Under the pieces are notes generated by a model that saw only the letters and a program-made list of their open reading frames with translations, was not told where the DNA came from and did not search any database. From Candidatus Palauibacter scopulicola (GTDB taxonomy: Bacteria > Gemmatimonadota > Gemmatimonadetes > Palauibacterales > Palauibacteraceae), in contig NZ_CANPWG010000038.1 in NCBI RefSeq assembly GCF_947581915.1, forward strand, positions 89,429 through 153,428: DNA of 64,000 bases, written 5' to 3'. The number at the start of each line of letters is the position of its first letter. The stretch's first letter is position 1. Both the position numbers and the translations under genes were made by a program. Positions 14,239-64,000 of the stretch are shown here, piece by piece.

Positions 14239-14251
14239 CGTCCTATCTCCC

Positions 14252-19889: not shown

Positions 19890-20104
19890 CCGGTCGCGTT
19901 TGATCTCCACGCCGCCTCCGTTCCGCCTGCTCGTGCTCCCGTGGGAAAGCCCCTGCCGAAGCCCTGACGGGTCCAAGCTCGCGAACGTCCCGACCGCGCC
20001 GCAACACCGCCAGCACCTCCAACTGGCCGTATGCCGCGGGCCACATGCCGCCGCCCCGGTTGATTGGCCGTTGAACGCCGCGCGGATCATGTTCAGCGAC
20101 GCCC

Positions 20105-21457: not shown

Positions 21458-21586
21458 AGACCTTGCACGACCTGCCTGTTGGCATGCGCCACGGGCGCTT
21501 GGCTCCTGAGCGCCCCGGCGCTCGTTCGCGCGTGCCCCGGCGCGCGCGGTAGGATCAACAGCCTGCGGTAAGGAAAGGTTTGTCCG

Positions 21587-44738: not shown

Positions 44739-47414
44739 ATGGAACGAGACAGCCGAGAGACGTTCGGCTCACGCTTCGGGCTCGTGGCCACGATGATCGG
44801 CGTCGCCGTCGGTCTCGGGAACGTGTGGCGCTTCCCGTACATGGTCGGCGAGTTCGGCGGGGCTCCCTTCGTGGCCTTCTACGTCCTCGCCGTGGTGCTG
44901 ATCGGCGTTCCCGCGCTCATGGCGGAATGGACGCTGGGCCGGCACACCCGCCGCGGCCCGGTCGGCGCGTTCGAGTCGGCCGGTCTCCCCTTCGGCCGCG
45001 CCCTCGGCTGGATCTTCTTCGTCGGCGTCACCGCGGCCACCGGCTACTACTCGAACGCGCTCGGCTGGGTACTGTACCACGCCCTGGCCGGGCTGCTCTC
45101 CGGCGTCGGGATCGAGATCGCCGCCGCCGCGATCCTGCCCCCGGACGAGGGGTTTTCGCTGCGCTCCTTCCTCCTGCAGTGCGTCTGCACCGGCGCGGTG
45201 CTCCTCACCTGCGCCGCGGTGCTGCGGCGCGGCCTCCGGGGCGGGATCGAGAAGGCGAGCCGCTTCATCGTGCCGGCGCTCCTCGGCGGCCTCCTCATCC
45301 TCATCATCCGCTCGCTCACGCTGCCCGGCGCGGGCGAGGGCCTCCGCTGGTACCTCGGCGCCTTCGATCCCGGCGCGCTCACGCCGCCCGTCATGCTGGG
45401 GGCGCTGGGCCAGGCGATCTTCAGCCTCTCGCTGGGCGGCACGTTCATGGTCGTGTACGGCTCCTACCTGAACCGCGGCGACCCTCTGCGCGGCAACGCC
45501 GTCTTCACCGCGGGCGGCGACCTGTGCGCCGGACTCCTGGCGGGGCTCGCCATCTTCCCCGCCGTGTTCGCCTTCGGGCTCGAACCGGCGAGCGGTCCCG
45601 GTCTCCTCTTCGTCACGCTGCCCGACGTGTTCGGGCAGATCCCGGCCGGGGCCGTGTTCGGGACGCTCTTCTTCCTGGCGCTGTTCGGGGGCGCCTACCT
45701 GTCGGACGTGGCGGCGCTGGAGGTGCTGGTGGCCGGGGTCACCGACAACACCGGGATCGGGCGCTCGCGCGCCGTCACGCTGACGACCGTGGTCGTGTTC
45801 GCGTTTGCGCTGCCCCCGATGATCAACATGAACGTGTTCACGCCCTGGGATCTGACCTTCGGATCGGGTTTCCAGACGCTCGGCGCGCTGCTCTCGGTTG
45901 TCGCCGTGGGGTGGGCGCTGGACCGCTCCGAAGTGCTGCGGCAACTGGCGGCGGGCGAGGATGGGCCCCGCGGGCGGCGGGTGCCCACGCTCTGGCTCTA
46001 CTACTGGCTCCGCTTCGTCATCCCCGCCGCGATCCTCGCCGTCGGAGCCTGGTGGCTGCTGCGGGACGTGCTGGGCAATGCGGGCGCCGGCCCGCCGCCC
46101 GCTGCCCGGGCCACTCTGGCCATCGAGGAGGTCTCGGTCCTTCCGATGGATGGCGAGCGCGTGCTCGCCGGCGTGACGGTGCTCATCGGCGACGGCCGCG
46201 TGCTCGCCGTGAGTCCGTCGGCCGAAGCGGAGGTCCCGGACGGCGCCGAGCGGGTCGACGGCCGCGGCCGCTTCCTCATCCCGGGCCTCCACGACATGCA
46301 CGTCCACTTCGGGGAGGAGTCGGCGCTCGGGCGGTTCCTGGCCACCGGAGTCACCGGCGTGCGCATCCTGTCGGGCGGGCCGCACACGCTCGACTTTCGC
46401 GACCGCGTCCGGAGCGGCGCACTGGCCGGCCCGGACATCCACACGGCGGGGCCGATCATCGAGGGGTTGCCGCCGCCGGGGTTCGCCGCCGTCATCGACA
46501 CGGCGGGACGCGCGATCGTCCACGACAGCCTCGACGGCGCCCGCACTGTGCGGGAGCAGCATGCCGCCGGGTACGACTTCATCAAGGTGTACAACAACGT
46601 GCCCGCGGCGGCCTACCGGGGCGTCGTCGCCGAGGCGCGCGGGCTCGGGATCCCGGTGGCGGGACACGTGCCCTTCGAGGTGGGACTCGATGGCGTCCTC
46701 GCGGCGGGCCAGGCCAGCATCGAACACCTGCGCGGGTACATCTGGCACCTCGTGCCCGAGGAGGCGCCGGCCCAGCCCGGCCCTGATTTGCGGTCGCGCA
46801 CGCTCGCCTGGGCTCACGGAGATCCCGCGCGGATCGGAGCGCTCGCCGAGCGGACCCGCCGGGCCGGCTCGTGGAACGTGCCCACGCTCTCGGTCCGCAT
46901 GATTCACAAGCCGGACCGCCTCCTCGATGCGTACCTCGCCACGGAGGAGGCGTCGCACATGACCGCCGCCATGCGCCGCTTCTACACCGAGCGCATGTCG
47001 ATCCCCTGGATGAGCAACTTCTCGCCGGATGACTTCGAGGCCGCGCTGGATGGTTTCGCGGTGGCGGATTCCCTCATCCGCGCCCTCGTGGCCGCCGGCG
47101 CTCCCGTGATGGCCGGCACGGATACGCCGCCCCTCGGCTTCGCCCTCCATCGCGAACTGGAGGAACTCGTCGCGGCGGGTCTGTCACCGTACGAGGCGCT
47201 GCGGAGCGCCACGGTCAACCCGGCCCGCTTCCTCGGACGGGAGGGGGGCGCCGGCATGGTGGTCGACGGGAGCCCCGCCGACCTCGTGCTGCTGGAGGGC
47301 AATCCGCTGGAAGCGATCGGCAACACGCGCCGCATCGCCGGCGTCGCGAGGCGCGGCGAATGGCTCGACCGCGCGACACTGGACGCGATGCTGCGGGAGG
47401 CCGCAGGCCGCTGA
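44739..47414 (+). CDS. Fusion protein: N-terminal Na+-dependent NSS-family transporter plus C-terminal amidohydrolase domain
   Basis: NSS signature GLGNVWRFPY with about 12 TM helices. Extra hydrophobic segment (WLRFVIPAAILAVGAWWLL). C-terminal metal-dependent hydrolase domain (LIPGLHDMHVHF...AGTD). Confidence 0.75.
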   Translation: MERDSRETFGSRFGLVATMIGVAVGLGNVWRFPYMVGEFGGAPFVAFYVLAVVLIGVPALMAEWTLGRHTRRGPVGAFESAGLPFGRALGWIFFVGVTAATGYYSNALGWVLYHALAGLLSGVGIEIAAAAILPPDEGFSLRSFLLQCVCTGAVLLTCAAVLRRGLRGGIEKASRFIVPALLGGLLILIIRSLTLPGAGEGLRWYLGAFDPGALTPPVMLGALGQAIFSLSLGGTFMVVYGSYLNRGDPLRGNAVFTAGGDLCAGLLAGLAIFPAVFAFGLEPASGPGLLFVTLPDVFGQIPAGAVFGTLFFLALFGGAYLSDVAALEVLVAGVTDNTGIGRSRAVTLTTVVVFAFALPPMINMNVFTPWDLTFGSGFQTLGALLSVVAVGWALDRSEVLRQLAAGEDGPRGRRVPTLWLYYWLRFVIPAAILAVGAWWLLRDVLGNAGAGPPPAARATLAIEEVSVLPMDGERVLAGVTVLIGDGRVLAVSPSAEAEVPDGAERVDGRGRFLIPGLHDMHVHFGEESALGRFLATGVTGVRILSGGPHTLDFRDRVRSGALAGPDIHTAGPIIEGLPPPGFAAVIDTAGRAIVHDSLDGARTVREQHAAGYDFIKVYNNVPAAAYRGVVAEARGLGIPVAGHVPFEVGLDGVLAAGQASIEHLRGYIWHLVPEEAPAQPGPDLRSRTLAWAHGDPARIGALAERTRRAGSWNVPTLSVRMIHKPDRLLDAYLATEEASHMTAAMRRFYTERMSIPWMSNFSPDDFEAALDGFAVADSLIRALVAAGAPVMAGTDTPPLGFALHRELEELVAAGLSPYEALRSATVNPARFLGREGGAGMVVDGSPADLVLLEGNPLEAIGNTRRIAGVARRGEWLDRATLDAMLREAAGR

Positions 47415-50102: not shown

Positions 50103-52517
50103 ATGCACCCGAACGAACTGACGCCCGCACAGCAGGCCGCCGCGGAGGATCCGGATCGGCTCCCCGGGCTCGCCGACGCCGAGTTCACGGCGCTGGGCCG
50201 CCGCGCGCGCCGGGTCGAGGGGCTGCGCAAGTCGACCGGCCGCGAGATCTACACGGACGACATCGTCCTGCCGGGCATGCTGCACGGGAAGATCCTCCGC
50301 TCCACCGAGGCGCACGCGCGGATCGTCTCCATCGACACGTCCGAAGCCGAGGCCCTCGACGGCGTGTACGGCGTCATCACCGGACGGGACCTGCCGACGC
50401 CGTACGGGATCATCCCCTGGACGCGCGACGAGCACGCCCTCTGCTTCGACAAGGTGCGCTTCATCGGAGATGCGGTGGCTGCCGTGGCCGCGGTCGACGA
50501 GGACACGGCGAACGCGGCGCTCGGGCGCATCCACGTCGAGTACGAGCCGCTTCCCGTCTATCTCTCGCCCGAGGAGTCGCTGACGCCCGAGGCCGCCGCG
50601 GAGCCCATCCACGCGCCGCGCAAGCCGGGGGCGAACGGCAACGTCCTCAAGCACGTCCACCTCGAGTTCGGGGACGTGGACGCGCGGATGGCGGAAGCGG
50701 ACGTCACGATCGAGGGGGAGTACTTCTTCCACGGGACGACGCACACGCCGATCGAGCCGCACTGCGCGATCTCCCGCCTCAACCCGGATGGCGCCCTCGA
50801 GGTGTGGTCCTCGACGCAGGTCCCGCACTACCTGCAGCGCGAACTCGCGCGGGTGCTCGACCACGACGTGGCGAAGGTGCGGGTCGTACAGCCGGCCGTC
50901 GGCGGGGCCTTCGGCGGCAAGTCCGAGCCGTTCGATCTCGAGTTCTGCGTGGCGCTCCTCGCGATGCGCACGGGCCGTCCGGTGAAGATCCTCTACACGC
51001 GCGAGGAGCTTTTCTACTCGCACCGCGGCCGCCACCCCATGCACATGAAGTATCGGCTCGGCGCCTCGCGCGACGGGAAGCTCCGGGCGCTCGACGCGCA
51101 CACGACGCTGGACGGGGGCGCCTACGCCTCGTTCGGTCTCGTGACGACGTACTACTCGGGGCAGCTCCTCACCTCGCCCTGCCACATCGAGTCCTACCGC
51201 TTCGACTCGACCCGGGTCTACACGAACGTGGCCCCGTGCGGCCCCAAGCGCGGCCACGGCTCGGTACAGCCGCGCTTCGCGTACGAGATCTCGCTGGACA
51301 AGATGGCCGAGAAGCTCGGCCTCGACCCGTTCGAACTCCGCCGCCGCAACTTCATGGGCACGGGTCGGACGGTGAACGAGTTCAAGGTCCAATCCAACGG
51401 CTTCCTGGAGTGCCTCGAGGCGGTGGAACGCGCCAGCGACTGGAAGAAGCGCCACCGGCGGCTGCCGAGGGGTCGCGGTCTCGGGATGGCGGCCTCCTCG
51501 TACATCTCCGGCACGAACTACCCGATCTACCCGAACGCGATGCCCCAGGCGGCGGTGCAGGTGCAGATCGAGCGCTCCGGCCGGGTCGCGATCCTGCACG
51601 GCGCCTCGGAGATCGGGCAGGGGTCCGACTCCACGATGGCCTACATCGCGTGCGAGGAACTCGGCGTCCCGCTCGAATACGTGCGCGTCTTCTCCGCCGA
51701 CACGGACCTCACGCCGGTGGACCTGGGCGCCTACTCCTCGCGCGAGACCGTCATGGTGGGGAACGCCTGCGTCGAGGCCTGCCGTACGCTGCGCGCGCAG
51801 GTCGAGGAAGCCGTCGGGGAGCAGTGGGGCGTGCCGGCGCCGCGGGTCCGTCTGGCCCGCGGCTGGGCTTTCGACGCGGAGGCTCCCGAAGACGCCGGCC
51901 GCCGGATCCCGATCTCCGAGGCGTTCAACGTCGCCGAGACGAAGTTCGGACTGCTCGGCGCCGTCGGCTCCTACGACACGCCGAAGGATGTCCACGGCGA
52001 GTACCGCGGCGGCACGATCGGATCCTCGCCCGCCTACTCGTTCACCGCGCACGTGGCCGAAGTCGAGGTCGAGGAGGACACGGGCGTCGTCGGCGTGAAG
52101 AACATCTGGGTGGCGCACGACTGCGGCCGCGCGCTCAACCCGGTGCTCGTCGAAGGCCAGATCGAGGGCTCCGCCTACATGGGCTTCGCTGAGGCGATCT
52201 TCGAGGAGCAACTCTTCCGCGAAGGAGAGGTGGAGGGCGGCCTGCATACGTCGCCGTCGCTCCTCGACTACCGGATCCCCACCTCCATGGACTGCCCGGA
52301 GTTCGAGGCGCTCATCGTCGAGTCAGTGGATCCGGAAGGCCCGTACGGCGCCAAGGAGGCGGGCGAGGGGCCGCTGCACCCGTCGCTCCCGGCGATCGCG
52401 AACGCGATCCACGACGCGGTCGGCGTCCGCCTCGATGCGCTCCCCTTCACGCCGCAACGCGTGTGGAGAGCCCTGCGCGCCCACGCCGCCGGGGCCGCGC
52501 GCGAGGACGTCGCCTGA
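50103..52517 (+). CDS. Molybdopterin-binding large subunit of XDH-family oxidoreductase (orphan)
   Basis: 804 aa. Aldehyde-oxidase / XDH a/b hammerhead and Moco-binding domains (GGAFGGK, AGEGP). Confidence 0.8.
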   Translation: MHPNELTPAQQAAAEDPDRLPGLADAEFTALGRRARRVEGLRKSTGREIYTDDIVLPGMLHGKILRSTEAHARIVSIDTSEAEALDGVYGVITGRDLPTPYGIIPWTRDEHALCFDKVRFIGDAVAAVAAVDEDTANAALGRIHVEYEPLPVYLSPEESLTPEAAAEPIHAPRKPGANGNVLKHVHLEFGDVDARMAEADVTIEGEYFFHGTTHTPIEPHCAISRLNPDGALEVWSSTQVPHYLQRELARVLDHDVAKVRVVQPAVGGAFGGKSEPFDLEFCVALLAMRTGRPVKILYTREELFYSHRGRHPMHMKYRLGASRDGKLRALDAHTTLDGGAYASFGLVTTYYSGQLLTSPCHIESYRFDSTRVYTNVAPCGPKRGHGSVQPRFAYEISLDKMAEKLGLDPFELRRRNFMGTGRTVNEFKVQSNGFLECLEAVERASDWKKRHRRLPRGRGLGMAASSYISGTNYPIYPNAMPQAAVQVQIERSGRVAILHGASEIGQGSDSTMAYIACEELGVPLEYVRVFSADTDLTPVDLGAYSSRETVMVGNACVEACRTLRAQVEEAVGEQWGVPAPRVRLARGWAFDAEAPEDAGRRIPISEAFNVAETKFGLLGAVGSYDTPKDVHGEYRGGTIGSSPAYSFTAHVAEVEVEEDTGVVGVKNIWVAHDCGRALNPVLVEGQIEGSAYMGFAEAIFEEQLFREGEVEGGLHTSPSLLDYRIPTSMDCPEFEALIVESVDPEGPYGAKEAGEGPLHPSLPAIANAIHDAVGVRLDALPFTPQRVWRALRAHAAGAAREDVA

Positions 52518-52570
52518 CAGCCCATGGCGCAAGCCCCGCTGCGTTCGAGCGGCGAGCGCATCCCGCCGGA

Positions 52571-52990
52571 ATGAAGCAGTTCGTCCGACAACTCGGGGTC
52601 GAGACGCGGGGGAAGGGTCTGTACGAGATCACCGGCCCGATTCTCGAGTGGGTCGCCACCCTTGAGATCGAGACGGGCATGCTCACCGTCTACATCCGCC
52701 ACACGTCGGCGTCTCTGACGATCCAGGAGAACGCGGATCCGGACGTCCTCCACGACCTCTCGAACTTCTTCGCCCGCCTCGTTCCGGAGGGCGACCCCCG
52801 CTACCGGCACACGATGGAGGGGCCGGATGACATGCCGGCCCACATCCGGTCGGCCCTGACCCAGACGCACTTGGCCATCCCGGTGCTCGACGGAGCGCCG
52901 GCACTGGGTACCTGGCAGGGGATCTTCCTCTTCGAGCACCGCCGCCGCCCCCACCGGCGAACGGTCGTGCTGCACGCCGTCGGCGAATAG
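52571..52990 (+). CDS. YjbQ / UPF0047-family protein (secondary thiamine-phosphate synthase-like)
   Basis: LTVYIRHTSASLTIQENADPDV...VVLHAVGE matches the YjbQ family. Confidence 0.7.
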   Translation: MKQFVRQLGVETRGKGLYEITGPILEWVATLEIETGMLTVYIRHTSASLTIQENADPDVLHDLSNFFARLVPEGDPRYRHTMEGPDDMPAHIRSALTQTHLAIPVLDGAPALGTWQGIFLFEHRRRPHRRTVVLHAVGE

Positions 52991-52997
52991 GGAGTTC

Positions 52998-54206
52998 CTA
53001 GCGAAGGTGTGGCTCGAGCTGTCCGGTGGGGCCGTATCTGCCGATCGCTCCGAAGTCGAGACCAACGACAGATTCACCTGCGACCGAATCCTGCTCGAAG
53101 ACGATGAAGCCAAGTTCCGCAAGGCGCGTGAGTTCTCGAACGAAAGTCCTGGGAGTAACGACGCGATACACCGTGCGGACGAAGGGTGAATCCACCAGCT
53201 CGCGGAGCAACACTCGTCTGGAGGGGTCTTCCGAGAACGGGTCGATCGGCTCGGTTTCCTCAAGGAGAAAAACCAGAAGACCATGCTCCCGCTCGTTGAT
53301 GAGACGGCGACGTTTGCTGATTCGTTCTCCGAGCGCCCAAGTCAGCGTCGAACGATAGACCAAGCGATTCAGCTTCGACTTAATGAAGGAGTTGATCCCC
53401 TTCAACTCGGCGTCAAACCCCTGAAGCCCGAACTCCACGAAGGGATCCACGCTGACCGGTTGCTCCCTGCGGCATTCCTGCAGGCGCCTCTTGTAGAGGT
53501 CCCCGTTGCGGTAGAAGTAGTTCGAGAGCCCGTAGAAACCATGGACGTTGTATCCTCCTTCGAAGAGGATGGCTGCCTCGACCAGTCTCGACACACGTCC
53601 GTTGCCGTCTCCGAACGGATGGATGGTCGCCAGGAAGAAATGGGCAAGCAGCGCTCTGACCACCGGATGTTCATCCCGCACGCGCCGAGGATTAACGAAA
53701 GCCACGAAGCCGTCGAGCAGATTCGAGAGGTTCTCGTGAGGCGCCCCCAGGTGAACTCCCCCCAGTGCCGGCGTACCGACCTGCACGCCGTGTGCTCGCA
53801 AGCGGCCGGGAACGTTGTTGACCTCGTCGGACCCCCGCGTCATCAGCCTATGCATGTGGAGGATATCCGCAACGCTTAGCGGCGGCTTACCGGGCCCGAA
53901 TCTCTCGCGAACCCAGTCTTGGGCGGCGTTCGCATTCTCGACCTGAAGGGCTTCCTTTGTTGTCGAATCGGCACGCGTATCGCGTTCCAGCAGTTCACGC
54001 ACCTGAGCCTCCGACAGCGGGTTTCCCTCGAGGGCAGTCGTACCGCGAATGGTTCTGATGCGGTTCAGTCGGTCGAGTTGGTCCTTCCAGTCCGGCGGCA
54101 GCAGAAGATTCTCTACCGCCTTCTTGCTTGCCTCGATTTCTACCAGGAGGCTCTGCAGGTGCCGTCCGTCAAGGTGATATTCGAAGCTGAACTCTCGCCA
54201 ATCCAT
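52998..54206 (-). CDS. Fic-family protein (AMPylase) with N-terminal inhibitory motif
   Basis: Fic motif HPFGDGNGRVSR. TTALEGN matches the (S/T)xxxE(G/N) inhibitory helix. Confidence 0.8.
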   Translation of the reverse strand: MDWREFSFEYHLDGRHLQSLLVEIEASKKAVENLLLPPDWKDQLDRLNRIRTIRGTTALEGNPLSEAQVRELLERDTRADSTTKEALQVENANAAQDWVRERFGPGKPPLSVADILHMHRLMTRGSDEVNNVPGRLRAHGVQVGTPALGGVHLGAPHENLSNLLDGFVAFVNPRRVRDEHPVVRALLAHFFLATIHPFGDGNGRVSRLVEAAILFEGGYNVHGFYGLSNYFYRNGDLYKRRLQECRREQPVSVDPFVEFGLQGFDAELKGINSFIKSKLNRLVYRSTLTWALGERISKRRRLINEREHGLLVFLLEETEPIDPFSEDPSRRVLLRELVDSPFVRTVYRVVTPRTFVRELTRLAELGFIVFEQDSVAGESVVGLDFGAIGRYGPTGQLEPHLR

Positions 54207-54247
54207 AGGTCATGACACCTCATGTGACTTCTTATTTGACATCTTGT

Positions 54248-54275
54248 TTGACACGATAAGATACCATATTATAAC
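54248..54275 (+). promoter_or_regulatory. Near-consensus sigma70-type promoter (TTGACA-16-TATAAC) reading toward the M8 protease gene
   Basis: TTGACA at 54248-54253 and TATAAC at 54270-54275 inside an AT-rich island. A second TTGACA lies at 54236-54241. Confidence 0.35.
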
Positions 54276-54422
54276 TAGATACGCAGTTTATGGCAACAGC
54301 CACGACCACTTACATGACAGCTTGCATGACAAGATGCTTGTATGCTCGTCCGAACGCCCCTCCGCAATCTTGTTACCTTCGCTTGAGCCAACGGGAGGAT
54401 GAATGACCGATGTTGAAAGCGC

Positions 54423-55706
54423 TTGAGAGTGGAGGACGTTCGGGCCAGCCACGCGTGCGGGCGGGATAGTTCGGGCGCTCGGCTGCGCCGGACGGTTTCC
54501 GGAAGGCCCGGTTTCAGGGCGTTCGTGGTGCTGGTTGCCGCCTGGGCGGCGGCGTGCGGGGACGGGAGCACGGACCTTCCTCTGACGCACGCGCCGAGGG
54601 CCATCGGCGTGCTTCCCGACCTGGAACTTCCCCGGGGTGAGTCCGCGCTGGTGGAGGTGTCGGGCCTCTTCAGCGACGCGGACGGGGATGTGCTTTCCTA
54701 CGAGGTCCGGTCTTCGGCCCCCGGGGTGGTCGCGGCGGAGGTGTCGGGCGGCACGGTGCGGCTGGTCGCCCTGGCGCACGGGATGGCCACGGTGGCGATC
54801 ACGGCACGCGATCCCCAGGGCCGGGCCGCCGCCCTCCGCTTCGAGGTCACCGTACCGAACAGGTTCGACATCGAGGTCCGCTTCGACAGTACGGCTACCG
54901 AGCCGCGGCGGGCGGTAGTCCTCGCGGCGGCGGAACTCTGGATGTCGGTGCTGGCGGATACGGAGCTGCCGGAGGTGCCGGTCGATGACCGCATCGAATG
55001 TTACGGCGCGCACACGGCGGAACCGGTGGGGAGCGTCGATGACCTGATGATCCTCGTCGAGTTTCGGGACATCGACGGTCCGGGCCGCACGCTCGCCCAG
55101 GCCGGCGTGTGCCGCCTGCGCGAAGGGTCGATGCTGCCGTTCGCGAGCGTGGCGTTCTTCGACGTGTCGGACTTCGGCGGCCTCATCGACTCCGGCGACG
55201 CGACCGAACTCGCCGTTCACGAGATCGCGCACGCGCTCGGATTCGGCCTGCTGTGGCGCCCGCTCGGTCTACTCCGGGATCCTGCCCTCGGCGTGGGGGC
55301 GATCGACGCGCACTTCGTCGGTCCCGAGGCCGTCGCCGCCTTCGACGCGGCGGGCGGCACGGAGTACACCGGCGGGGCGAAGGTCCCGGTCGAGAACCTC
55401 GGCGGAGCCGGGAGCGCGAACCTCCATTGGCGGGGCGCCGTGCTGCGCGGGGAACTCATGAGGCCGCTCAACAGGATCGGAGTCCGGGAGACCCTGAGCG
55501 CGATCACGATCCGGTCGCTGGCCGATCTGGGTTACGTGGTCGACGCGAGCCTGGCGGAGCCGTACCTGCTCCCCGGCGTCGGCGCCGCGGACGAGGAACC
55601 CGGCCGCGTGGTCGATCTGGGCGACGATGTTCTCAGGGGTCCGGTGCAGGTCGTCGATGCGCAAGGACGCGTCGTGCGCGTGCTCCGCGACCGTTCGCCG
55701 GGGTAG
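54423..55706 (+). CDS. Leishmanolysin-like (M8) zinc metalloprotease lipoprotein with N-terminal Ig-like domain
   Basis: HEIAHALGFG (HExxH). Lipobox (LVAAWAAACG). TTG at 54423 or GTG at 54429; start uncertain. Confidence 0.6.
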   Translation: MRVEDVRASHACGRDSSGARLRRTVSGRPGFRAFVVLVAAWAAACGDGSTDLPLTHAPRAIGVLPDLELPRGESALVEVSGLFSDADGDVLSYEVRSSAPGVVAAEVSGGTVRLVALAHGMATVAITARDPQGRAAALRFEVTVPNRFDIEVRFDSTATEPRRAVVLAAAELWMSVLADTELPEVPVDDRIECYGAHTAEPVGSVDDLMILVEFRDIDGPGRTLAQAGVCRLREGSMLPFASVAFFDVSDFGGLIDSGDATELAVHEIAHALGFGLLWRPLGLLRDPALGVGAIDAHFVGPEAVAAFDAAGGTEYTGGAKVPVENLGGAGSANLHWRGAVLRGELMRPLNRIGVRETLSAITIRSLADLGYVVDASLAEPYLLPGVGAADEEPGRVVDLGDDVLRGPVQVVDAQGRVVRVLRDRSPG

Positions 55707-55783
55707 TCCATCCCGTTGACCGAATAAACCGTACATTCCTATGCTCAGGCCGGCGTCCCTCGACCTCCATGGGGTAAGGCACA

Positions 55784-57004
55784 ATGCTGCGCAGACTGCT
55801 GTTCGGATCCAGCCTCAGGATCATCGCCGTGATCACGGTCGGTACGATTGCGGTCGTGGCACTCATGCTCTCGCTGGCCCCCGAACCGGGAAGCCAGGAA
55901 CCGCCCCCCCAGATCCCGTTTGCGCAAACGGCCAACGTTGTGGCCGGATCGGGTGCCATACCCGTGTTCGGATCCGGCACCGTGCGGCCAAGCGAGGAGA
56001 TCGACGTCGCACCGCAGGTGGGCGGCAAGGTCGTCCGGGTGAGTCCGCGATTCCAGAGTGGAGGGCGCGTGGAGGCGGGCGAGACGCTCTTCCGCATCGA
56101 AGAAGCCGATTACGCCTACCGCGTGCAGGTAGCGGAAGCGAACGTCGCGGCCAGCCGCGTCGCCTTCCTCGAGGAACAGGAACGGGCAACGATCGCCAGC
56201 GCCCAGTATGAACTGTACGTGGAGCGGCGCGAGACGGGGCCTCCGCCGGCCGAGGCGAGTCCGCTCACGCTGAGGGAGCCTCAGCTGGAAGCGGCCAGCG
56301 CCGCGCTGAGCCGGGATCAGGCCCGGCTTGAGGAGGCGAAACTCGCGTTCTCCAGGACCCGGGTCACCGCGCCGTTCGATGGCTTCGTGCGCGAGGAATC
56401 CGTCGATGCGGGGCAGGTCGTGAACCCCGGGCAGCCCGTCGGACGCCTCTTCGCTTCGGGGGCGGTGGAGGTCGTCGTTCCCCTCTCCGACGCCGACGCC
56501 GCCCTGGTCCCCGGATTGTGGGGGCTTGAGGCGGGGGACGGGGCACGGGACGTAGCGGCTCGTGTGGTCGCCCACTACGGGGATGCCACGTACGCCTGGG
56601 AGGGCTACGTGGATCGGGGTGAGACTTCCGTTGACGCGCAGACACGCACCATCGACGTGATCGTGCGCGTGCCGGACCCGTTCGACCCAAGCGCGCCGGC
56701 GGGCCCGTCCGCCGCCGTCGGGGGCGATCCTCCGTTGCTGGTCGGCAAGTTCGTGGAGGTGGAGATCGAGGGAATCTCACCGGAGGACTACTTCCGGATC
56801 CCGCGAGCTGCGCTGCAACCCGGCAACGAAGTCTGGACGGTGGACGGCGACGGCGTCGTGAGCATCGTTCCGGTTCAGGTGCTGCAACGCGCCAACGATG
56901 CGGTGTTCGTCACCGGCGCCCTGCGGGGCGGCCAGGCGGTAGTCACCGGTGGACTTCAGTTCGCCACCGAAGGGATGCGCGTCCAGACCGACCCGGCGCG
57001 ATGA
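55784..57004 (+). CDS. Efflux RND transporter periplasmic adaptor subunit (HlyD/MFP family)
   Basis: N-terminal TM, coiled-coil, and beta-barrel/MP domains. Confidence 0.8.
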   Translation: MLRRLLFGSSLRIIAVITVGTIAVVALMLSLAPEPGSQEPPPQIPFAQTANVVAGSGAIPVFGSGTVRPSEEIDVAPQVGGKVVRVSPRFQSGGRVEAGETLFRIEEADYAYRVQVAEANVAASRVAFLEEQERATIASAQYELYVERRETGPPPAEASPLTLREPQLEAASAALSRDQARLEEAKLAFSRTRVTAPFDGFVREESVDAGQVVNPGQPVGRLFASGAVEVVVPLSDADAALVPGLWGLEAGDGARDVAARVVAHYGDATYAWEGYVDRGETSVDAQTRTIDVIVRVPDPFDPSAPAGPSAAVGGDPPLLVGKFVEVEIEGISPEDYFRIPRAALQPGNEVWTVDGDGVVSIVPVQVLQRANDAVFVTGALRGGQAVVTGGLQFATEGMRVQTDPAR

Positions 57005-60000
57005 ATCCCGACGCGGGTCCCGAGCCGGACGACCGCCGCGAGCGGTCCGGCCCGCTCGCCTACATGGCCAGCAACGGCATCGCGGCCAATCTCCTGATGA
57101 TGGGCATCGTCGCGGCCGGACTCGTGGCCCTGACCGGCCTCGAGCGGGAAGCCTGGCCCATCACCCCCTTCTACCACATCGAAGTCTCGATGGCCTATCC
57201 CGGCGCCACGCCGGAGGAGATCGAGGAGTCGATCGTCGTCAAGATCGAGGACCAGGTCAGCGGGCTCGATGACGTGAGGGCCGTCAAGTCCCTGGCGGCT
57301 CCGGGCATTGCCTCCGTGCGGATCCAGATGGATTCCCGTACGGACATGGATCGGGCCCTGGACGACATCGAATCTGCCGTCAATCGCATCCAGTCCTTCC
57401 CGGCCGGAGCCGAACGTCCGCGCTTCCAGGAGATGGACAACCGCTTCAGCATGATGCGGCTCATCGTCCACGGCGACGTCTCCGAGCGCTCGCTGAAGGA
57501 ACTGGCGCATCGGATCGAGGATGACCTCGCCGCGCTACCCTCCGTCTCCCAGGTCGAGGTCAGCGGGGTCCGGAACTACGAGATCTCCATCGAGGTATCG
57601 CTTCACCGCCTCAGAGCCCTGGGACTCTCCCTCACCGACGTTGCCGGGGCGATCCGCCGCAGTTCGCTCGACTTGTCGGCCGGCAGCATCGACACGCGGG
57701 AATCCCAGGTTCGGGTGCGGACCCTCGGGCAGAACTACGACCAGCAGGACTTCGAGGAGATCGTCCTTCTCAGCGGCCGCGACGGCACGGTCGTGCGCCT
57801 CGGCGACATTGCCGAGGTCCGCGACGGGTTCCAGGAGGCAGACCTGATCGTCCGCCATCAGGACCGGCCCGCCGTATTCGTCGAGGTCTATCGGGCCGGT
57901 GGCGAGCAGGTGATGGATGTGGCCACGACGGTTCGCGAGCACCTGGCGAACGAGGTGATCCCGGCCTTGCCGGACGGCGTGGGCATCACCCTGTGGAACG
58001 ACGAATCCCAGGCCTACGAGGAACGCGCCGATCTTCTTCTGAAGAACGGATTTCTGGGTTTGTTGCTGGTGCTGGTCGCACTGAGCCTGTTTTCTCCAGG
58101 TTCGGCTCGCCCTGTGGGTCGCCGTGGGCCTCGCCGTTTCGGGTGTAGGCGCGCTCGCCGCCATGATGGCATTCGACGTGGCGATCAACACCATCAGCCT
58201 CTTCTCCTTTGTCCTCGCCATTGGGATCGTCGTTGACGACGCCATCGTTGTGGCCGAGCACATTCAACACGAACGCAATCAGGGGACCCCGGGGGTCGCG
58301 GCCGCGATCCGGGGCGTCCGGCGGATCAAGGTGCCGTTGACGTTCGCGGTTCTCACTTCGGTGGTGGCCTTCGTCCCCTTGCTGTTCATCCCCGGCGGCG
58401 TCGGTGACGTATGGCGGGCTCTGCCGATCATCATGATCGCCATGCTGCTGTTTTCGCTGGTGGAATCGCTGTTCGTTCTGCCGAACCACCTGTCCCACCT
58501 GCCCGGTCCGGACTGGGTGCCGGCCAACGCGTTCGACCGATTCTTCTCGCGACTCCAGAGTCGTGTCGACGCCCAACTGCAGCGGTTCATCCAGGGGCCC
58601 CTGGACCGGGCCCTGCGGTTCGCCACGGCCCGGCCCGGGGTGACGATGACGGGGGCCGTTGCACTGCTCGTGCTGAGCATTTCCCTGCTGCCCGCGGGAA
58701 TCGTCCCCACCACGCTGGCCGACGACGTGGAGGGCGATATCGTGACGGTCGTGTTGGAGATGCCCGATGGGGCCACCGCTCCGCGAACGTACGAAGTCGC
58801 GCTGGAGCTGGAGGCCGCGGGCCACCGGGTCATCGAACAACTCTCTCGAAGCCGCCCCGCGGACGCGCCGCCGCTGCTGACCGGTGTCACCGTGACCGTC
58901 GGACTGGGATCGAGAATCGAGGGCGGACTCAACCCGCAGCCCACCCTCAATCCGCAGGCCAATATCGCCACCATCGAGTTCAAACTCCTCGGTGCGCAGC
59001 AGAGGCGGATCTCCACCGGAGACGTCGTGCAGGCGTGGCGGGAGGAGGTGGGTGTGCTGCCCTACGTCCGCGGCATCACCTTCAGCGGCGAGATCTTCAC
59101 CCTGGGGAACCCGGTCGAGGTCGTACTGTCACACCCGGACCCGGAGCGCCTCGCCGGGATCGCCGGCTCGGTGGTCGACGGACTCCGCAGCGTGAGGGGC
59201 GTCTACGACATACGGTCGGATCACGCCCCGGGCATCCCGGAGGTTCAGCTCGAGTTGCGGCCCGAAGCGCGCACGCTCGGTCTCACCGTGCAGGAGTTGG
59301 CGGGACAGGCGAGGGCCGCGTTCTTCGGCGCGGAAGCCGTCCGGGTGCAGCGCGGCCGGGAAGAGGTACGAGTCTACGTCCGGCTGCCCGCCGAAGAGCG
59401 AAACTCGATTACCGATATCGAGGGCTACCTGCTCCGGACGCCGGGCGGGGACGAGGTGCCGATGGTCAGTGTGGCGTCGCTGATCCCGGGCGTATCGCCC
59501 TCGGCCCTCCGGCGCAGGGATGGCCAGCGCGTCGTCACCGTCACCGCCGATGTGGACGCCTCGGTGATTTCCGGCGACGAAGCCAACGAGATCCTGGCCG
59601 GTTCGATCCTCGCGGACCTGGCCGCGGCGTACCCGGGCCTGACATACACGTTCGGGGGCGAGCAGCAGCAGCAGCTGGAGTCCATCGACGCGCTGTACCG
59701 CGGTTTCGCGGTCGCGCTGATCCTGATTTTCGCGCTCCTCGCCATCCCCCTCCGTTCATACACCAAGCCGTTCATCATCATGGCCGTCATCCCCTTCGGG
59801 TTCATCGGCGTGATCCTGGGCCACTGGATCCTGGGAGTAGCCCTGAGCGCCGTCTCCTTCATGGGGATCTTCGGTCTGAGCGGCGTGGTGGTGAACGATT
59901 CCCTGGTCATGATCGATTTCATCGATCAGAAACTCCGGGAAGGCGTCCCGCCGAGAACCGCGATCATGGAGGGGGCAAAGGGGCGTTTTCGTCCGATCAT

Positions 60001-60208
60001 GCTCACTTCCCTGACCACGTTCCTCGGCTTCACGCCCCTGATCCTCGAGCGCGCGATCCAGGCCCAGTTCCTGATACCGTTTGCCGCTTCGCTCGGTTGC
60101 GGCATTCTCTTCATAACGGCCATACTTATGATGGTGGTTCCGGCGCTATGCACTCTACATCTGCGCTTGATGCCGTCGCGGCGTCCTTCGATTCCGAGCG
60201 CCGCATAG
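57001..60208 (+). CDS. RND efflux permease (AcrB/CzcA family), interrupted by a +1 frameshift at 58090-58093
   Basis: Two adjacent ORFs (57001-58236 and 58124-60208) together align with one RND permease. The frame changes within a T4 run (LVALSLF | LQVRLALWVAV). Confidence 0.75.
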
Positions 60209-60242
60209 TGCACGTCGACCGCGGCGAGGCGAGAACCGACAA

Positions 60243-62270
60243 ATGACGGTGCAGAGTCTGAAGGTCGAATCCCTGAGCCTCGTCGACGAACTCATCCTGA
60301 TGCTTCTCGACGAGAAGGGAGGCTACTTCCATCAGGTCCCCGGCTGGCAGCTGAACTGCGCCGTGGTCGGCGGGGTGCTGGCGGAACTCTCCTTCCGGTC
60401 GCGGCTCGACTCGGACCTGACATCCCTGTACGTGGTGGACCGGGCCGAGACGGGCGATCCCGTCCTGGATCCCATCCTGAAGGAGATTGCGGACGAACCG
60501 GTCCAACACACGGCCCGGTACTGGGTCGAACGGCTCGCCCCCCGCGCCGAATCGGTTGTCGACCTGACCCTGGATCGCCTGGTTGAACGGGGGATCCTCC
60601 AACACCACGAGGGCGAATTCTGGACGCTGGCTCCCCCCGTCATGCATCGGCAGCAGTACGGGATGTTCGAGGAAGACGCGACTGACCAGTTCATCAAGGC
60701 GCGCATCGGCAACGTCATCTTCGCCGACGAGGTTCCCGAACCGAGAGACGCCGTCATCGTGTGCCTCGTCAACACCTGCGATGTGTTTCGCCTGATCTTC
60801 GAACTCGATGAAGCGGCGGAGGAGCGCATCAAGTGGATCTGTCAGTTGGACCTGATCGGCCGGTCCATCGCCGCTGTGGTCTCCGAGAACCTCGTCGGTC
60901 CGATCCGGAGACATACTGCTCTCGCCAAGAAGATTCCGACGGTTCCGCTGACCAGGCTGATGCGCAACCCGCATGTTCGCGACGGCAACCTGAACGCGCT
61001 CTTCGGCAGTCTCGCGGAGGAGTACGGCCCGGTGTTCCAGATCCGCCCGCCCTTCTCGAAGCGCATGATCTTCCTGGCCGGACTCGAGACGAATGAATGG
61101 ATGCAAAAGCGCGGGCGCATGTACCTGAGGACCAGGGACTACTTCGCCGACTTCGAGAAGGTCTACGGCGCGGCCGGCGTTCTGCCCGCTCTGGACGGGG
61201 CCGACCACTTCCGGCTTCGCAAGTTCCTGTCGCCGGCCTATTCCCGCACGAGACTTGCAGGGCAGCTGGACGACCTCTACGGCAGGGGGCGCGCGTACAT
61301 GTCGACCCTGACGGTCGGGGACTCCTACCGCGCCACGTCCATGGGCCGGGCCATGGTGAACGCCCAGCTGTCGCCGCTGTTCATCGGCGTCGACACGCAG
61401 GATCTCATGGACGACCTGATGGTCTACAAGGAGCGGGCCCTCAGCGTGCACATCGCCAGGATCCTGCCCAGGTTCACGCTGCATACCCCGGGCATGAGGC
61501 GTCGGGCGGCCGTCCTGGACACGCTGATGAAGCGGATCTTGAGCGTCCATACTCCCGCCCAACGCGTGGACAGCCCGCGGAACCTGGTGGACGACTATCT
61601 CAGCCTGCATGCCAGCGACCCGCAGTTTCTCCCGGAGTCCAACCTGCTCTTCGCTTTTTCCGCGGCTCTGATTGCCAGCGTGTACCTCGGCGACACGTTC
61701 AGCCTCGCAGTCTACGCCATGGTATCGCAGCCGGCGCTCTACGAGAGGATCCGCGCCGAAGCGGATGCGCTGTTTGCCAACGGTGACCCCGAAAAAGAGG
61801 ATTTCACCCCCGCCAACATCGACGTGACGCATCGCTTCCTCATGGAGTGCATGCGCATGTACCCGATCGTGTCCATGTCCGTTCGGAACGTGATGAATAC
61901 CTGCACGGTCGAGAACTACGAGTTGCCCCTGGGGGAACGGGTCCACATCGCCATGACCGCCACGCATTACATGAGCGACATCTTTCCCGAACCCCACAGG
62001 TTCGACATCGACCGCTTCCTGCCGTCGCGTCGTGAGCATCACAGTCTCGGGTTCGCCCCGTACGGGCTGGGTACGCACAAATGTCTCGGCACCCGCTGGA
62101 TGGAGATGCACCTGGCGGCCAACCTGTTGATGCTGGCGCACTATTTCACGATCGAGGTGTCGCCGGCGAAATACGCCCGGAAGCTCCGCTTCAATCCGCT
62201 TCCATCGCTGAAGCCGAGCAAGAAGGTCAGGTTCCGCATCGCCGAGCAGAGGCGGGAGCTGCCCGCCTGA
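60243..62270 (+). CDS. Fusion protein: N-terminal GPP34 (GOLPH3/Vps74-like) domain plus C-terminal cytochrome P450
   Basis: N-terminal LSLVDELILMLLDEKGG is typical of the GPP34 family. C-terminal P450 signatures: ExxR (ECMRMYP), PxRF (PEPHRF), heme loop FAPYGLGTHKCLG. Confidence 0.75.
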   Translation: MTVQSLKVESLSLVDELILMLLDEKGGYFHQVPGWQLNCAVVGGVLAELSFRSRLDSDLTSLYVVDRAETGDPVLDPILKEIADEPVQHTARYWVERLAPRAESVVDLTLDRLVERGILQHHEGEFWTLAPPVMHRQQYGMFEEDATDQFIKARIGNVIFADEVPEPRDAVIVCLVNTCDVFRLIFELDEAAEERIKWICQLDLIGRSIAAVVSENLVGPIRRHTALAKKIPTVPLTRLMRNPHVRDGNLNALFGSLAEEYGPVFQIRPPFSKRMIFLAGLETNEWMQKRGRMYLRTRDYFADFEKVYGAAGVLPALDGADHFRLRKFLSPAYSRTRLAGQLDDLYGRGRAYMSTLTVGDSYRATSMGRAMVNAQLSPLFIGVDTQDLMDDLMVYKERALSVHIARILPRFTLHTPGMRRRAAVLDTLMKRILSVHTPAQRVDSPRNLVDDYLSLHASDPQFLPESNLLFAFSAALIASVYLGDTFSLAVYAMVSQPALYERIRAEADALFANGDPEKEDFTPANIDVTHRFLMECMRMYPIVSMSVRNVMNTCTVENYELPLGERVHIAMTATHYMSDIFPEPHRFDIDRFLPSRREHHSLGFAPYGLGTHKCLGTRWMEMHLAANLLMLAHYFTIEVSPAKYARKLRFNPLPSLKPSKKVRFRIAEQRRELPA

Positions 62271-62281
62271 GCCCCCCCACA

Positions 62282-63313
62282 ATGCGACTCGGCAAACTGT
62301 CGAAAGCGCTGAGAGCTGCGCACGCGGGATCGGGCGTCGCGCGTCGAGTCCGGCACCTCGAAGGCTGGCTTGATCGAGCGGCATCGGAGGCTGCGGGCGC
62401 GGGCACCTACGACCACGCGGAAACGGTCAGGGACTACTACGAGCTGTGCAACGGCTTCATGGTGTACGGCTGGGGCGAATCCCTGCACTTCGCGCCCCTC
62501 ACGCCCAGTGAAAGCCTGGAGGAGTCCAAGCTCCGGCACCAGCGGGCGATGATCTCCATGTTGGAGCTGCAACAGGGCATGGAGGTGATCGACGTCGGGT
62601 GTGGAATCGGCGGCCCCATGCGCCGAGTCGTCCGCGAGGCGGGTGTCAGGGTCGTGGGCATCAACATCAATGAGATCCAGCTGGGGGAGGCGAAGAAGCT
62701 GAACGCCGAGGCGGGGCTGGAGCACATGACCGATTTCAGGAAGCGCAGCTTCGAGGACATGAGCGCCATCGAGGACGACACCTTCGACGCGGGTTACGCG
62801 ATCGAGTCGACGTGCCATGCGCAGGACAAGCAACGCGCGTTCGCGGAGGTATTCCGCGTACTGAAGCCGGGCGCCCTGTTCTGGGGCCAGGAAATGTGCC
62901 TGACGGACCGGTTCGATCCGCGGGACGGCCGGCACCGGACCATCAAGCGGGAGCTCATGCGCGGTATCGCGCTGCACGACATCGCCACGTTCGGAGAAGT
63001 GAATCGCGCTCTCGAAGGGGCGGGATTCCAGGTCATCGAGGGGAGTGACTGGGAGGTCCGGGAAGGACCCGCTACGCCCTGGTATCAACCCATGGAGAGT
63101 CGGCACGGGACGTTGGGGAACGCGGTGCGCAGGCTCCCCTGGGGCCGCAAGGCGTTCATCGCGGGGTCGAAGTTGGCCGAGGTGCTGCGGTTCTTTCCGA
63201 AGGGCTCGGCGGAGGTGGTTCGACTCCTTGACCGAACCGCGGAGGCTTACGTCGCAGGCGGCAAGACGGGCATCTTCACGCCCCTGTATTGTTTCCTGGC
63301 GCGCAAGCCCTAG
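62282..63313 (+). CDS. SAM-dependent methyltransferase of the sterol 24-C-methyltransferase (ERG6/SMT) family
   Basis: SMT region I YYELCNGFMVYGWGESLHFA. SAM motif I VIDVGCGIGGP. Sterol_MT_C-like C-terminal region. Confidence 0.7.
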   Translation: MRLGKLSKALRAAHAGSGVARRVRHLEGWLDRAASEAAGAGTYDHAETVRDYYELCNGFMVYGWGESLHFAPLTPSESLEESKLRHQRAMISMLELQQGMEVIDVGCGIGGPMRRVVREAGVRVVGININEIQLGEAKKLNAEAGLEHMTDFRKRSFEDMSAIEDDTFDAGYAIESTCHAQDKQRAFAEVFRVLKPGALFWGQEMCLTDRFDPRDGRHRTIKRELMRGIALHDIATFGEVNRALEGAGFQVIEGSDWEVREGPATPWYQPMESRHGTLGNAVRRLPWGRKAFIAGSKLAEVLRFFPKGSAEVVRLLDRTAEAYVAGGKTGIFTPLYCFLARKP

Positions 63314-63999
63314 TCGGCGCTGCGGTCAGGGCTTCGAGGCGCCATCGCCGGGTCCGGATAGAACTGTCGGCAGTGTCGGCGGTACTTCCCGATGGGGCCG
63401 TCCGTCCGGCAAAGCCGCGGGGGAGACCGGTAGCGCTTCCTGTCCCAGATCACGATGTCCTGCAGGACGAACCGCCTCTCCTCGCGGAGGATGAAGTAAT
63501 TCAGCACCCGGTGGCGCAGCGGCACGGGCAGGAAGCCCAGGCCCGAGATGAACCGCCCCGGTTTCCGGATCTCCCGCACCTGATTGACCATCGTCAACTC
63601 CACGAATTCGCCGTCGACGGGCGTCGTAAGCACCCACATGCGCGACCTTATGCCGACCGACTTCTCGTGAATCTCGACGAAGGAGTAGCCGAGTCCGTGG
63701 ACGTGCGTGATGACCGAGACTTCGGAATGAATGTCCACCAGACCCAGGATCCGGCGCACCGCCTTGAAGTCGAAACAACTCTTCAGGTAGGCGCCGTCGA
63801 CGGAAAAGTCGGTCGGCTCCACGTCGTGGTAGCCATGTGTGTACTCGAGGTGCTCCACGTCCACGGAGTTTTCCGTCGTCTCCTGGGGATGGCCTCGAAA
63901 CCGCAGCTTGCAGGATCGGAGCCCGGTCCACTGGGCGCCGGTGGGTGGTTCGTCCGGCAGGTGCCACTGGGGGGCTCGGCCGCCGCTCCCCCACCAGGC
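63310..63999 (-). CDS. Rieske-type non-heme iron oxygenase, catalytic domain (partial; N-terminal Rieske domain lies beyond the window edge)
   Basis: Frame open to the window end. Mononuclear-iron motif ENSVDVEHLEYTH (E-N-x2-D-x2-H-x4-H). C-terminal LQDIVIWDRK resembles the oxygenase QDxxI motif. Confidence 0.55.
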   Translation of the reverse strand, partial: AWWGSGGRAPQWHLPDEPPTGAQWTGLRSCKLRFRGHPQETTENSVDVEHLEYTHGYHDVEPTDFSVDGAYLKSCFDFKAVRRILGLVDIHSEVSVITHVHGLGYSFVEIHEKSVGIRSRMWVLTTPVDGEFVELTMVNQVREIRKPGRFISGLGFLPVPLRHRVLNYFILREERRFVLQDIVIWDRKRYRSPPRLCRTDGPIGKYRRHCRQFYPDPAMAPRSPDRSAD

Positions 64000-64000
64000 G

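Follow-up and report, generated by a model that had tools for sequence, protein, structure and literature searches.

We analyzed a window of 64,000 nucleotides (nt) from Candidatus Palauibacter scopulicola (contig NZ_CANPWG010000038.1, positions 89,429 to 153,428), which encodes a protein of 675 amino acids (aa) joining a domain of the GPP34/GOLPH3 fold to a cytochrome P450. The motifs of the P450 are intact, the gene is closely linked to genes for a sterol methyltransferase (SMT), a Rieske oxygenase, and an RND transporter, and the GPP34 domain has kept the hydrophobic hairpin of GOLPH3 and lost its canonical pocket for phosphatidylinositol 4-phosphate (PI4P). In our preferred reading, to which we give about an even chance, the fusion would be a cytoplasmic P450 that tailors sterols or triterpenoids, is tethered to the membrane by its GOLPH3-fold domain, and acts with the methyltransferase, the Rieske oxygenase, and the transporter. 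The gene is organized as follows.

60243..62270, plus strand: the GPP34-P450 fusion gene, 675 aa, of the published GPP34_L family (open reading frame, both Pfam domains, conserved full-length homologues)
60279..60881, plus strand: the GPP34/GOLPH3-fold domain, aa 13-213 (Pfam, family profile, structure model, pocket columns)
60594..60629, plus strand: the β3/β4 hairpin ILQHHEGEFWTL, aa 118-129 (secondary structure in the models, alignment to GOLPH3)
60891..60950, plus strand: the interdomain linker and proline hinge KKIPTVPL, with P232 (low model confidence at aa 217-225; P232 invariant)
60939..62267, plus strand: the cytochrome P450 domain, aa 233-675 (Pfam, motifs, alignment, model)

The open reading frame (ORF) begins with ATG and has no internal stop. 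Pfam identifies GPP34 (PF05719) at aa 13-213, over positions 1-198 of the 201 of the model (E=1.2e-29; 104 bits, the gathering score being 29.1 bits), and the GPP34 motif LVDELILMLLDEKGG lies at aa 13-27. The P450 domain (PF00067) is matched at aa 397-646 (E=1e-33), this best stretch being only the C-terminal half of the P450. An earlier note on this DNA had proposed that one polypeptide joins a GPP34 domain to a complete P450, and this proposal stands: the frame is uninterrupted, the domain is recognized over its full length by the GPP34 profile, and both families are found. The AlphaFold model of the full-length protein has a predicted local distance difference test score (pLDDT) of 84.8 and a predicted template modeling score (pTM) of 0.77.

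The same architecture is found far beyond this genome. In a search of 5.8 billion proteins, the best 120 clusters were all two-domain proteins of 664-686 aa, 68-97% identical to the query, on contigs reaching 6.8 Mb. Taking this search and a second one made with a profile, the best 120 clusters of each had both Pfam domains and 633-704 aa. An exhaustive HMMER search gave at least 45 clusters (at 50% identity) of full-length fusions only 25-55% identical to the query, and more than 200 database clusters share the architecture of about 675 aa. A scan of species-representative genomes revealed the same continuous protein at 80 loci in about 10 phyla, many of them in closed chromosomes of 3-6 Mb, including long-read ones. 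The hosts belong to Gemmatimonadota, Latescibacterota, Acidobacteriota, Rhodothermales, Chloroflexota, Acidimicrobiia, Nitrospirota, and Alpha- and Gammaproteobacteria. The homologue in Ca. Palauibacter denitrificans SB0661_bin_40 (locus L001) is 98% identical to the protein of the window. Subfamilies that share only 25-55% identity all have P232 at the junction. Hundreds of independent assemblies, closed chromosomes among them, keep the junction and P232, which rules out that the fusion arose from misassembly or from an overlooked stop codon.

The relationship of the N-terminal domain to GOLPH3 is remote in sequence. A direct phmmer search of the domain against the PDB is nearly blind (E=0.01) and a family profile is required: the one built from 24 diverse N-domains matches human GOLPH3 (3kn1) over the whole domain, with E=4e-12. 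The model of the domain alone (pLDDT 85, pTM 0.83) has an α-helical core from which the β3/β4 hairpin projects (aa 119-129 in the model), and its only significant matches in the PDB are GOLPH3 and Vps74 (TM 0.60-0.71; to GOLPH3, 0.66-0.71), the next match having E≈0.5. As judged by profile and predicted structure, membership of the GOLPH3 fold is secure. We rejected the possibility of a fusion to a redox partner, of the kind seen in BM3 or CYP51-Fx, because the N-domain matches GOLPH3 and Vps74 only; there is also no Pfam match to flavodoxin, flavin adenine dinucleotide (FAD), ferredoxin, or Rieske domains within the fusion protein.

In human GOLPH3 the PI4P pocket is formed by W81, R90, R171, and R174, and double-alanine mutants of the pocket in GOLPH3 and Vps74 neither bind PI4P nor are targeted to the Golgi (Wood et al. 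2009). These positions compare as follows with the protein of the window and with 50 diverse fusions.

GOLPH3 W81: P33 here; in the 50 fusions P in 27 and W in none
GOLPH3 R90: V42 here; A in 36, V in 7, S in 4, and R or K in none
GOLPH3 R171: E103 here; D in 25, E in 10, and R or K in none
GOLPH3 R174: V106 here; R in 23

Hence, three of the four pocket residues are never conserved among the 50 fusions. Because the columns of W81, R90, and R171 never hold residues of the GOLPH3 type, the GPP34 domain of the fusions has not kept the canonical phosphoinositide site. The earlier note had described the domain as phosphoinositide binding, and this part of its description finds no support in the pocket, where all four residues are replaced in the protein of the window.

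Other features of GOLPH3 have been kept. The strand FLLF of GOLPH3 (residues 194-197) aligns with FWTL of the fusion (aa 126-129), in columns that are hydrophobic or aromatic throughout the family, which indicates that a hydrophobic hairpin strand of the GOLPH3 type is retained. An acidic character is retained as well: the net charge of aa 1-232 is -15, with a family median of -12 and a value of about +1 for the GOLPH3 core. In the recent structure of COPI with GOLPH3, the hairpin lies within the bilayer, and short basic tails of membrane enzymes bind to the acidic face. The N-terminal arm that binds COPI (GOLPH3 residues 1-58) is missing, as the domain starts at about aa 10-13 and the alignment begins at GOLPH3 residue 60. 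The suggestion in the earlier note that the domain is a built-in membrane-targeting module can therefore be kept in part: the retained hairpin and the end of the domain at an invariant proline hinge are consistent with targeting, and phosphoinositide binding is the part that has to be given up.

The P450 carries all the motifs that had been quoted for it, here given with their positions.

61683-61697, plus strand: I-helix motif YLGDT, aa 481-485
61845-61856, plus strand: ExxR motif, E535-R538
61992-62018, plus strand: PERF-type motif PHRFDIDRF (PHRF at aa 584-587)
62052-62090, plus strand: Cys loop FAPYGLGTHKCLG, aa 604-616, with the ligand C614

C614, E535, R538, and R591 are invariant, and an AGxDT-like I helix (here G483-D484-T485) is kept, across subfamilies 25-55% identical. 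The heme domain is complete: the CYP51 of M. capsulatus aligns with aa ~249-646 of the fusion, and whole P450s (CYP184A1, CYP51, and BM3) can be superposed on the AlphaFold model over about 460 columns (TMt 0.77-0.82). The P450 thus is apparently intact and catalytically competent. Its nearest solved relatives by sequence are the bacterial CYP51 sterol demethylases (E≈5e-19) and CYP120, and by structure CYP184A1, CYP51-Fx, and BM3; a Foldseek search of the full model did not discriminate the class of substrate. NCBIfam gives only matches far below threshold for the P450 and nothing for the Rieske oxygenase. We considered a membership in CYP51, defined by at least 40% identity, the B'-helix motif YxxF..PxFGxxVxYD, and the I-helix motif GQHTS, and rejected it: the P450 is only about 20% identical and lacks the signatures, its I helix reading YLGDTFS in place of the AGHHTSS of M. 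capsulatus CYP51 and the B' motif being only loosely similar.

The genes around the fusion suggest what such a P450 could do. Four of them form, with the fusion, the cassette of the window.

55784..57004, plus strand: HlyD-family membrane-fusion protein (MFP), the first gene of the cassette (Pfam; upstream of the RND gene in related loci too)
57001..60208, plus strand: AcrB-type RND transporter, ending 34 nt 5' of the fusion (Pfam ACR_tran on both halves)
62282..63313, plus strand: SMT, 343 aa, with the motif YGWGESLHF (Sterol_MT_C, E=2e-15)
63310..64000, minus strand: 3' part of a Rieske/KshA_C-type oxygenase, convergent with the SMT gene and cut by the end of the window (KshA_C, E=2e-22)

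The genes of the MFP, the RND transporter, the fusion, and the SMT all run in the same direction, 34 nt separating RND from fusion and 11 nt the stop of the fusion from the ATG of the SMT; this arrangement marks them as a predicted operon. A full-length homologue of the Rieske gene product carries both Rieske and KshA_C domains, and the best relatives of this oxygenase in the PDB are the KshA 3-ketosteroid 9α-hydroxylases. The fusion gene of the window is thus colocalized with sterol genes, and a member of a distant subfamily (see below) stands within a full cluster.

To assess this association across genomes, we counted neighbors at the 80 loci of species genomes, either by targeted tblastn within ±10 kb or by unbiased ORF clustering. 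The former identified an SMT at 59 of the 80 loci and a KshA_C Rieske oxygenase at 64; an RND-superfamily transporter of any type was counted at 73, plus two truncated loci revealed by tblastn. The clustering gave the following.

Rieske and KshA_C oxygenase: 55 of 80 loci
AcrB-type RND transporter: 46 of 80 loci
SMT: 45 of 80 loci
FAD amine-oxidase-like protein: 35 of 80 loci
RND transporter of the MMPL/sterol-sensing-domain type: 23 of 80 loci, plus four proteobacterial-type loci, with a LolA-like carrier in three

In most orthologous loci the SMT gene adjoins the fusion. The transporter is of the AcrB type or, in Chloroflexota, Acidimicrobiia, and Proteobacteria, of the MMPL/sterol-sensing-domain type. 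For example, three loci of Proteobacteria and Ca. Poriferihabitaceae (L052, L061, and L064) have an MMPL/sterol-sensing-domain transporter with a LolA-like periplasmic lipid carrier and no AcrB-type tripartite pump; a fourth (L071) has the same transporter, and no LolA-like gene was seen at that locus. The 80 loci show at least six different gene orders, and the association is therefore not one inherited block. Sterol-type neighbors are found again around distant members of the family, which are 34-47% identical.

L082: DUF1295 and a KshA_C Rieske oxygenase
L083: squalene synthase and a KshA_C Rieske oxygenase
L084: RND transporter, KshA_C Rieske oxygenase, two ERG4/ERG24 reductases, 3β-hydroxysteroid dehydrogenase (3β-HSD), VanA_C Rieske oxygenase, a stand-alone CYP51-like P450, and a fusion of squalene epoxidase (SE) and oxidosqualene cyclase (OSC)
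L085: RND/MFP/OEP, amine oxidase, 3β-HSD, and a VanA_C Rieske oxygenase

By its predicted gene content, L084 is a complete cluster for de novo sterol synthesis. The SE-OSC fusion of this locus (19342-22028) is a single protein of more than 1100 aa; in the supplement of Brown et al., ERG1 and ERG7 match a single gene in a metagenome cluster of A. aerophoba.

The cassette also bears marks of mobility. In the window, GC content is about 0.71 over positions 1-52000 and 0.63-0.66 over ~52000-64000. Across loci, the GC content of the cassette stays at 0.56-0.66 whether the flanks of the host are at 0.51 or at 0.72, and the RND proteins are 80-96% identical across phyla. This constancy, together with the high identity, indicates horizontal transfer, and suggests that the cassette is acquired and moves across phyla among symbionts of sponges and some corals. 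Horizontally transferred ERG24-CYP51-OSC clusters and an enrichment in SMTs have been described in sponge symbionts of these phyla (PMC9531527), and SMTs of sponge symbionts alkylate sterol side chains in vitro (PMC10070321); neither of these works mentions GPP34.

The earlier note had taken the joining of GPP34 to a P450 to be undescribed. This is incorrect: the architecture was published as GPP34_L by Ferreira et al. 2025 (Microbiome 13:4, PMC11706023), who found it in 16 phyla: 656 of the 663 long GPP34 proteins have it, and 92.6% of the metagenome-assembled genomes (MAGs) of sponge-associated Gemmatimonadota encode it. They also reported that it is expressed in sponge metatranscriptomes, that GPP34 further occurs in fusions with a Rieske domain or with an ABC ATPase, and that P450 genes adjoin short GPP34 genes. 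Flanking genes were analyzed in that study for the short form only, and the words "sterol" and "methyltransferase" are absent from its text. No paper connecting GPP34 or GOLPH3 of bacteria or symbionts with sterols was found in the literature searched. The architecture is thus already known, and the loss of the PI4P pocket and the sterol/RND context of the gene appear to be unreported in the literature that could be searched. We also observed the fusion and the cassette in Ca. Palauibacter poriticola and other Plut_ MAGs (L030, L031, and L032; Plut_88886, Plut_88899, and Plut_88884), whose names point to the coral Porites. Judging by these names, the published statement probably draws the range of the family too narrowly in confining it to symbionts of sponges.

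How could the parts work together? The P450 most likely oxidizes a sterol or a closely related triterpenoid, and would do so in concert with the KshA-like Rieske oxygenase and the SMT encoded downstream; the adjacent RND transporter probably moves the substrate or the product of the P450. The GOLPH3-fold domain would take the place of the transmembrane anchor of microsomal P450s and tether the enzyme to the cytoplasmic face of the inner membrane. Such a tether would be independent of PI4P, acting through the hydrophobic β-hairpin, through the acidic face gripping a basic cytosolic segment of a membrane partner, or through both. The acidic face might have as its client the RND pump or a sterol enzyme bound to the membrane. 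Concerning the reaction, the tight coupling to the SMT gene, and it only, makes an oxidation or desaturation of the side chain coupled to C-24 alkylation a candidate. The published fusions of GPP34 to Rieske domains and ABC ATPases, and the P450 genes near short GPP34 genes, fit a portable tether for partners acting at the membrane. Extended to the whole family, this would make the GPP34-P450 proteins a large, unrecognized group of sterol-tailoring P450s, in which a PI4P-independent GOLPH3-fold adaptor docks the enzyme at the membrane or at the RND exporter, within a mobile "modify-and-export" cassette with SMT and Rieske genes in sponge and coral symbionts. We hold this wider proposal tentatively, at somewhat less than an even chance.

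Several other explanations must be considered. Ferreira et al. proposed that GPP34 proteins are secreted effectors that bind PI4P of the host on phagosomes and block the maturation of the phagolysosome, allowing the symbiont to persist. The enrichment of the family in sponge symbionts, its absence from free-living relatives, its expression in sponge metatranscriptomes, and the homology of the domain to a eukaryotic PI4P effector all agree with this proposal. However, the enrichment is explained equally well by sterol cassettes, which are a hallmark of sponge microbiomes (PMC9531527), and the pocket that such an effector would use is not conserved (R90 is replaced by A, V, or S, R171 by D or E, and W81 by P) in a domain that is strongly acidic. 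The N terminus of the fusion shows neither a hydrophobic stretch resembling a signal peptide nor a twin-arginine motif, a heme P450 requires cytoplasmic redox partners, and the gene is operonic with those of an inner-membrane pump and a cytoplasmic S-adenosylmethionine-dependent methyltransferase. We regard a secreted effector as improbable. The catabolism of host sterols as a carbon source, initiated by a CYP125/142-like P450 and the Rieske oxygenase, seems to us more improbable still. It would account for the kinship of this oxygenase with KshA, its closest solved relative, and for the genes of acyl-CoA dehydrogenase and aldehyde dehydrogenase near the fusion in loci of Acidimicrobiia. Yet the conserved neighbors include no KstD, Hsa, or Mce4-type genes, and they are biosynthetic or tailoring enzymes (SMT, ERG4/ERG24, 3β-HSD, SE-OSC, and squalene synthase).

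Two explanations are somewhat less improbable. Sponges are rich in toxic metabolites, and the P450 could oxidize toxic compounds of the host or of neighbors in a phase I reaction before a tripartite RND pump expels them, with the sterol genes as mere neighbors on a mobile island. An RND-superfamily transporter is indeed the most constant neighbor (about 75 of the 80 loci), often immediately adjacent, and the P450 is structurally as near to fatty-acid or broad-specificity P450s as to CYP51. Such a defense would leave unexplained the 11-nt coupling to the SMT gene and the recurrence of KshA-like Rieske oxygenases, ERG4/ERG24, 3β-HSD, and SE-OSC in independent orders and in distant subfamilies; moreover, monoderm-type lineages use an MMPL/sterol-sensing-domain pump, which is typical of lipid export and not of drug efflux. 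We consider it unlikely. Marginally less unlikely, in our view, is that the P450 belongs to a sterol pathway and its GPP34 domain is an oligomerization, regulatory, or lipid-presenting module instead of a tether. In crystal structures the hairpin mediates contacts in the GOLPH3 dimer and the Vps74 tetramer, the pTM of the two-domain model hints at a defined packing of the domains, and R54, R154, and R195 of the GPP34 domain are nearly invariant. Against this, the GOLPH3 fold is not known to contain a hydrophobic cavity. The position of the domain at the N-terminal hinge of the P450 mirrors that of membrane anchors, and the fusions of GPP34 to Rieske proteins and ABC ATPases acting at the membrane fit targeting better.

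The reading that we prefer, a membrane-tethered P450 tailoring sterols, should itself be taken with caution, as a number of observations weigh against it. The sterol role is suggested throughout by guilt by association. In structure the P450 is equally close to the fatty-acid P450s CYP184A1 and BM3 and to CYP51, its nearest named unfused relative is CYP120 ("P450 120"), and the other unfused relatives are named only "cytochrome P450." Neither a ferredoxin nor a reductase that could serve as partner was seen among the genes of the cassette, and no OSC was found within the 64 kb of the window. The RND gene of the window is frameshifted: an insertion of one T in a T run at 58081-58100 (TTTT, compared with TTT in L003) splits it into two overlapping ORFs, and its orthologues are intact, so that the frameshift reflects either an error of sequencing in a homopolymer or the recent pseudogenization of the pump. 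Three loci of Nitrospirota and one of Ca. Aldehydirespirator show little or no linkage to sterol-type genes. Finally, many of the 80 loci share ancestry, and the counts given above are not counts of independent events.

The family shows a diversity of forms. It has diversified into many subfamilies with 25-55% identity, and one variant of 872 aa (P0254) has about 215 additional residues N-terminal to the GPP34 domain. Several genomes carry adjacent pairs of GPP34-P450 paralogues (L081, 7807-11995; L053, 7168-12016; L063, 9989-14099), and in L063 an additional P450-containing protein of 639 aa adjoins the fusion. In L083 (12987-16669), an IS110-family transposase interrupts a second copy and separates its GPP34 fragment from its P450 fragment; genes for an MFP and a KshA-like Rieske oxygenase adjoin this copy. 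A search for homologues of the N-domain only yielded mostly frameshift-truncated fusions and not true short GPP34 proteins, and hence it is uninformative on GPP34_S. We inspected eight short entries (245-384 aa) with GPP34 only (in the range P0121-P0240, e.g., P0124, P0126, P0127, P0133, P0171, and P0184), and all eight were truncated fusions: five enter the N terminus of the P450 before they leave the frame or stop, two end shortly after the hinge, and P0184 lacks an internal segment. Within the clade of the long form, counts of short GPP34 proteins could be inflated by such entries.

The rest of the window, from 1 to 52 kb, encodes ordinary chromosomal functions (e.g., PolA, PriA, and sigma-70) and no further sterol genes. 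In the low-GC stretch 5' of the MFP and RND genes are a Fic-domain protein and a leishmanolysin-like (M8) peptidase (52998-54206, minus strand, and 54423-55706, plus strand); a Fic gene also adjoins RND/MFP/OEP in L085 and lies upstream in L017. An ORF of 891 aa (44739-47414, plus strand) has a sodium:neurotransmitter symporter (SNF) domain and a C-terminal amidohydrolase domain, and may be another fusion or two merged genes. There are also two large subunits of molybdoenzymes of the xanthine dehydrogenase family, one of them with an FAD subunit and a cytochrome b561 adjoining (14252-16705 and 13240-14310, minus strand; 50103-52517, plus strand).

These results may have consequences for several questions. 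The sole proposal in print on the function of GPP34_L, a secreted PI4P effector, fails the test of the pocket, and the context of a sterol modification and export cassette makes a testable enzyme of what was an enigmatic "symbiosis marker." If our reading is right, symbionts of sponges and corals make or remodel unusual sterols by means of a mobile cassette. This is relevant to where the sterol biomarkers of sponges come from, and to who makes the side-chain-alkylated sponge sterols that are the source of the "oldest animal" biomarker, 24-isopropylcholestane. It also bears on how bacteria, which lack an endoplasmic reticulum, position P450s on substrates embedded in membranes. For the evolution of the fold, the family provides a bacterial form of the GOLPH3 adaptor that is independent of PI4P, and would suggest that tethering enzymes to membranes is the ancestral role of the fold, before eukaryotic binding of PI4P and COPI.

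The fusion resembles several known systems and differs from each of them. With GOLPH3 and Vps74 (3KN1, 9QPQ, and 2ZIH) it shares the fold, the hydrophobic β3/β4 hairpin, the acidic surface, and, conceptually, the holding of an enzyme at a membrane. In contrast to them, its domain has neither the PI4P pocket nor the COPI arm, is far more acidic, and is covalently joined to its presumed client enzyme, whereas GOLPH3 binds the tails of its clients. The CYP51 of M. capsulatus and its ferredoxin fusion (6MCW and 7SNM) are the closest solved proteins by sequence and, likewise, are sterol-pathway P450s of bacteria with an extra domain. However, they are only distantly related to the fusion, in which G-D-T replaces the His-Thr-Ser signature and the fused domain is N-terminal and is not a redox partner. 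Microsomal class II P450s also have a targeting element just N-terminal to a conserved proline hinge, and a substrate presumed to come from the membrane. Their single transmembrane helix is here replaced by a peripheral α-helical domain of 220 aa, and no cytochrome P450 reductase partner is evident.

As for the cassette, other bacterial sterol systems (the C-4 demethylation enzymes SdmAB, the Bst/HpnN-type RND exporters, and the ERG24-CYP51-OSC clusters of PMC9531527) have sterol enzymes that are clustered with RND exporters and spread horizontally in the same way. The cassette described here (RND, GPP34-P450, SMT, KshA-like Rieske, and in some cases the FAD amine-oxidase-like protein) is distinct from the ERG24-CYP51-OSC core and looks like an add-on for tailoring and export. 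The closest likeness is to GPP34_L of sponge symbionts, with PF05719 at the N terminus and PF00067 at the C terminus of a protein of about 675 aa in the same organisms. The protein of the window, with GPP34 and P450 in one chain and near identity to that of a Ca. Palauibacter MAG, is a member of this family. We differ from Ferreira et al. in interpretation only: what they regard as a secreted effector binding PI4P has, in our analysis, a lost pocket and a place in a sterol/RND cassette.

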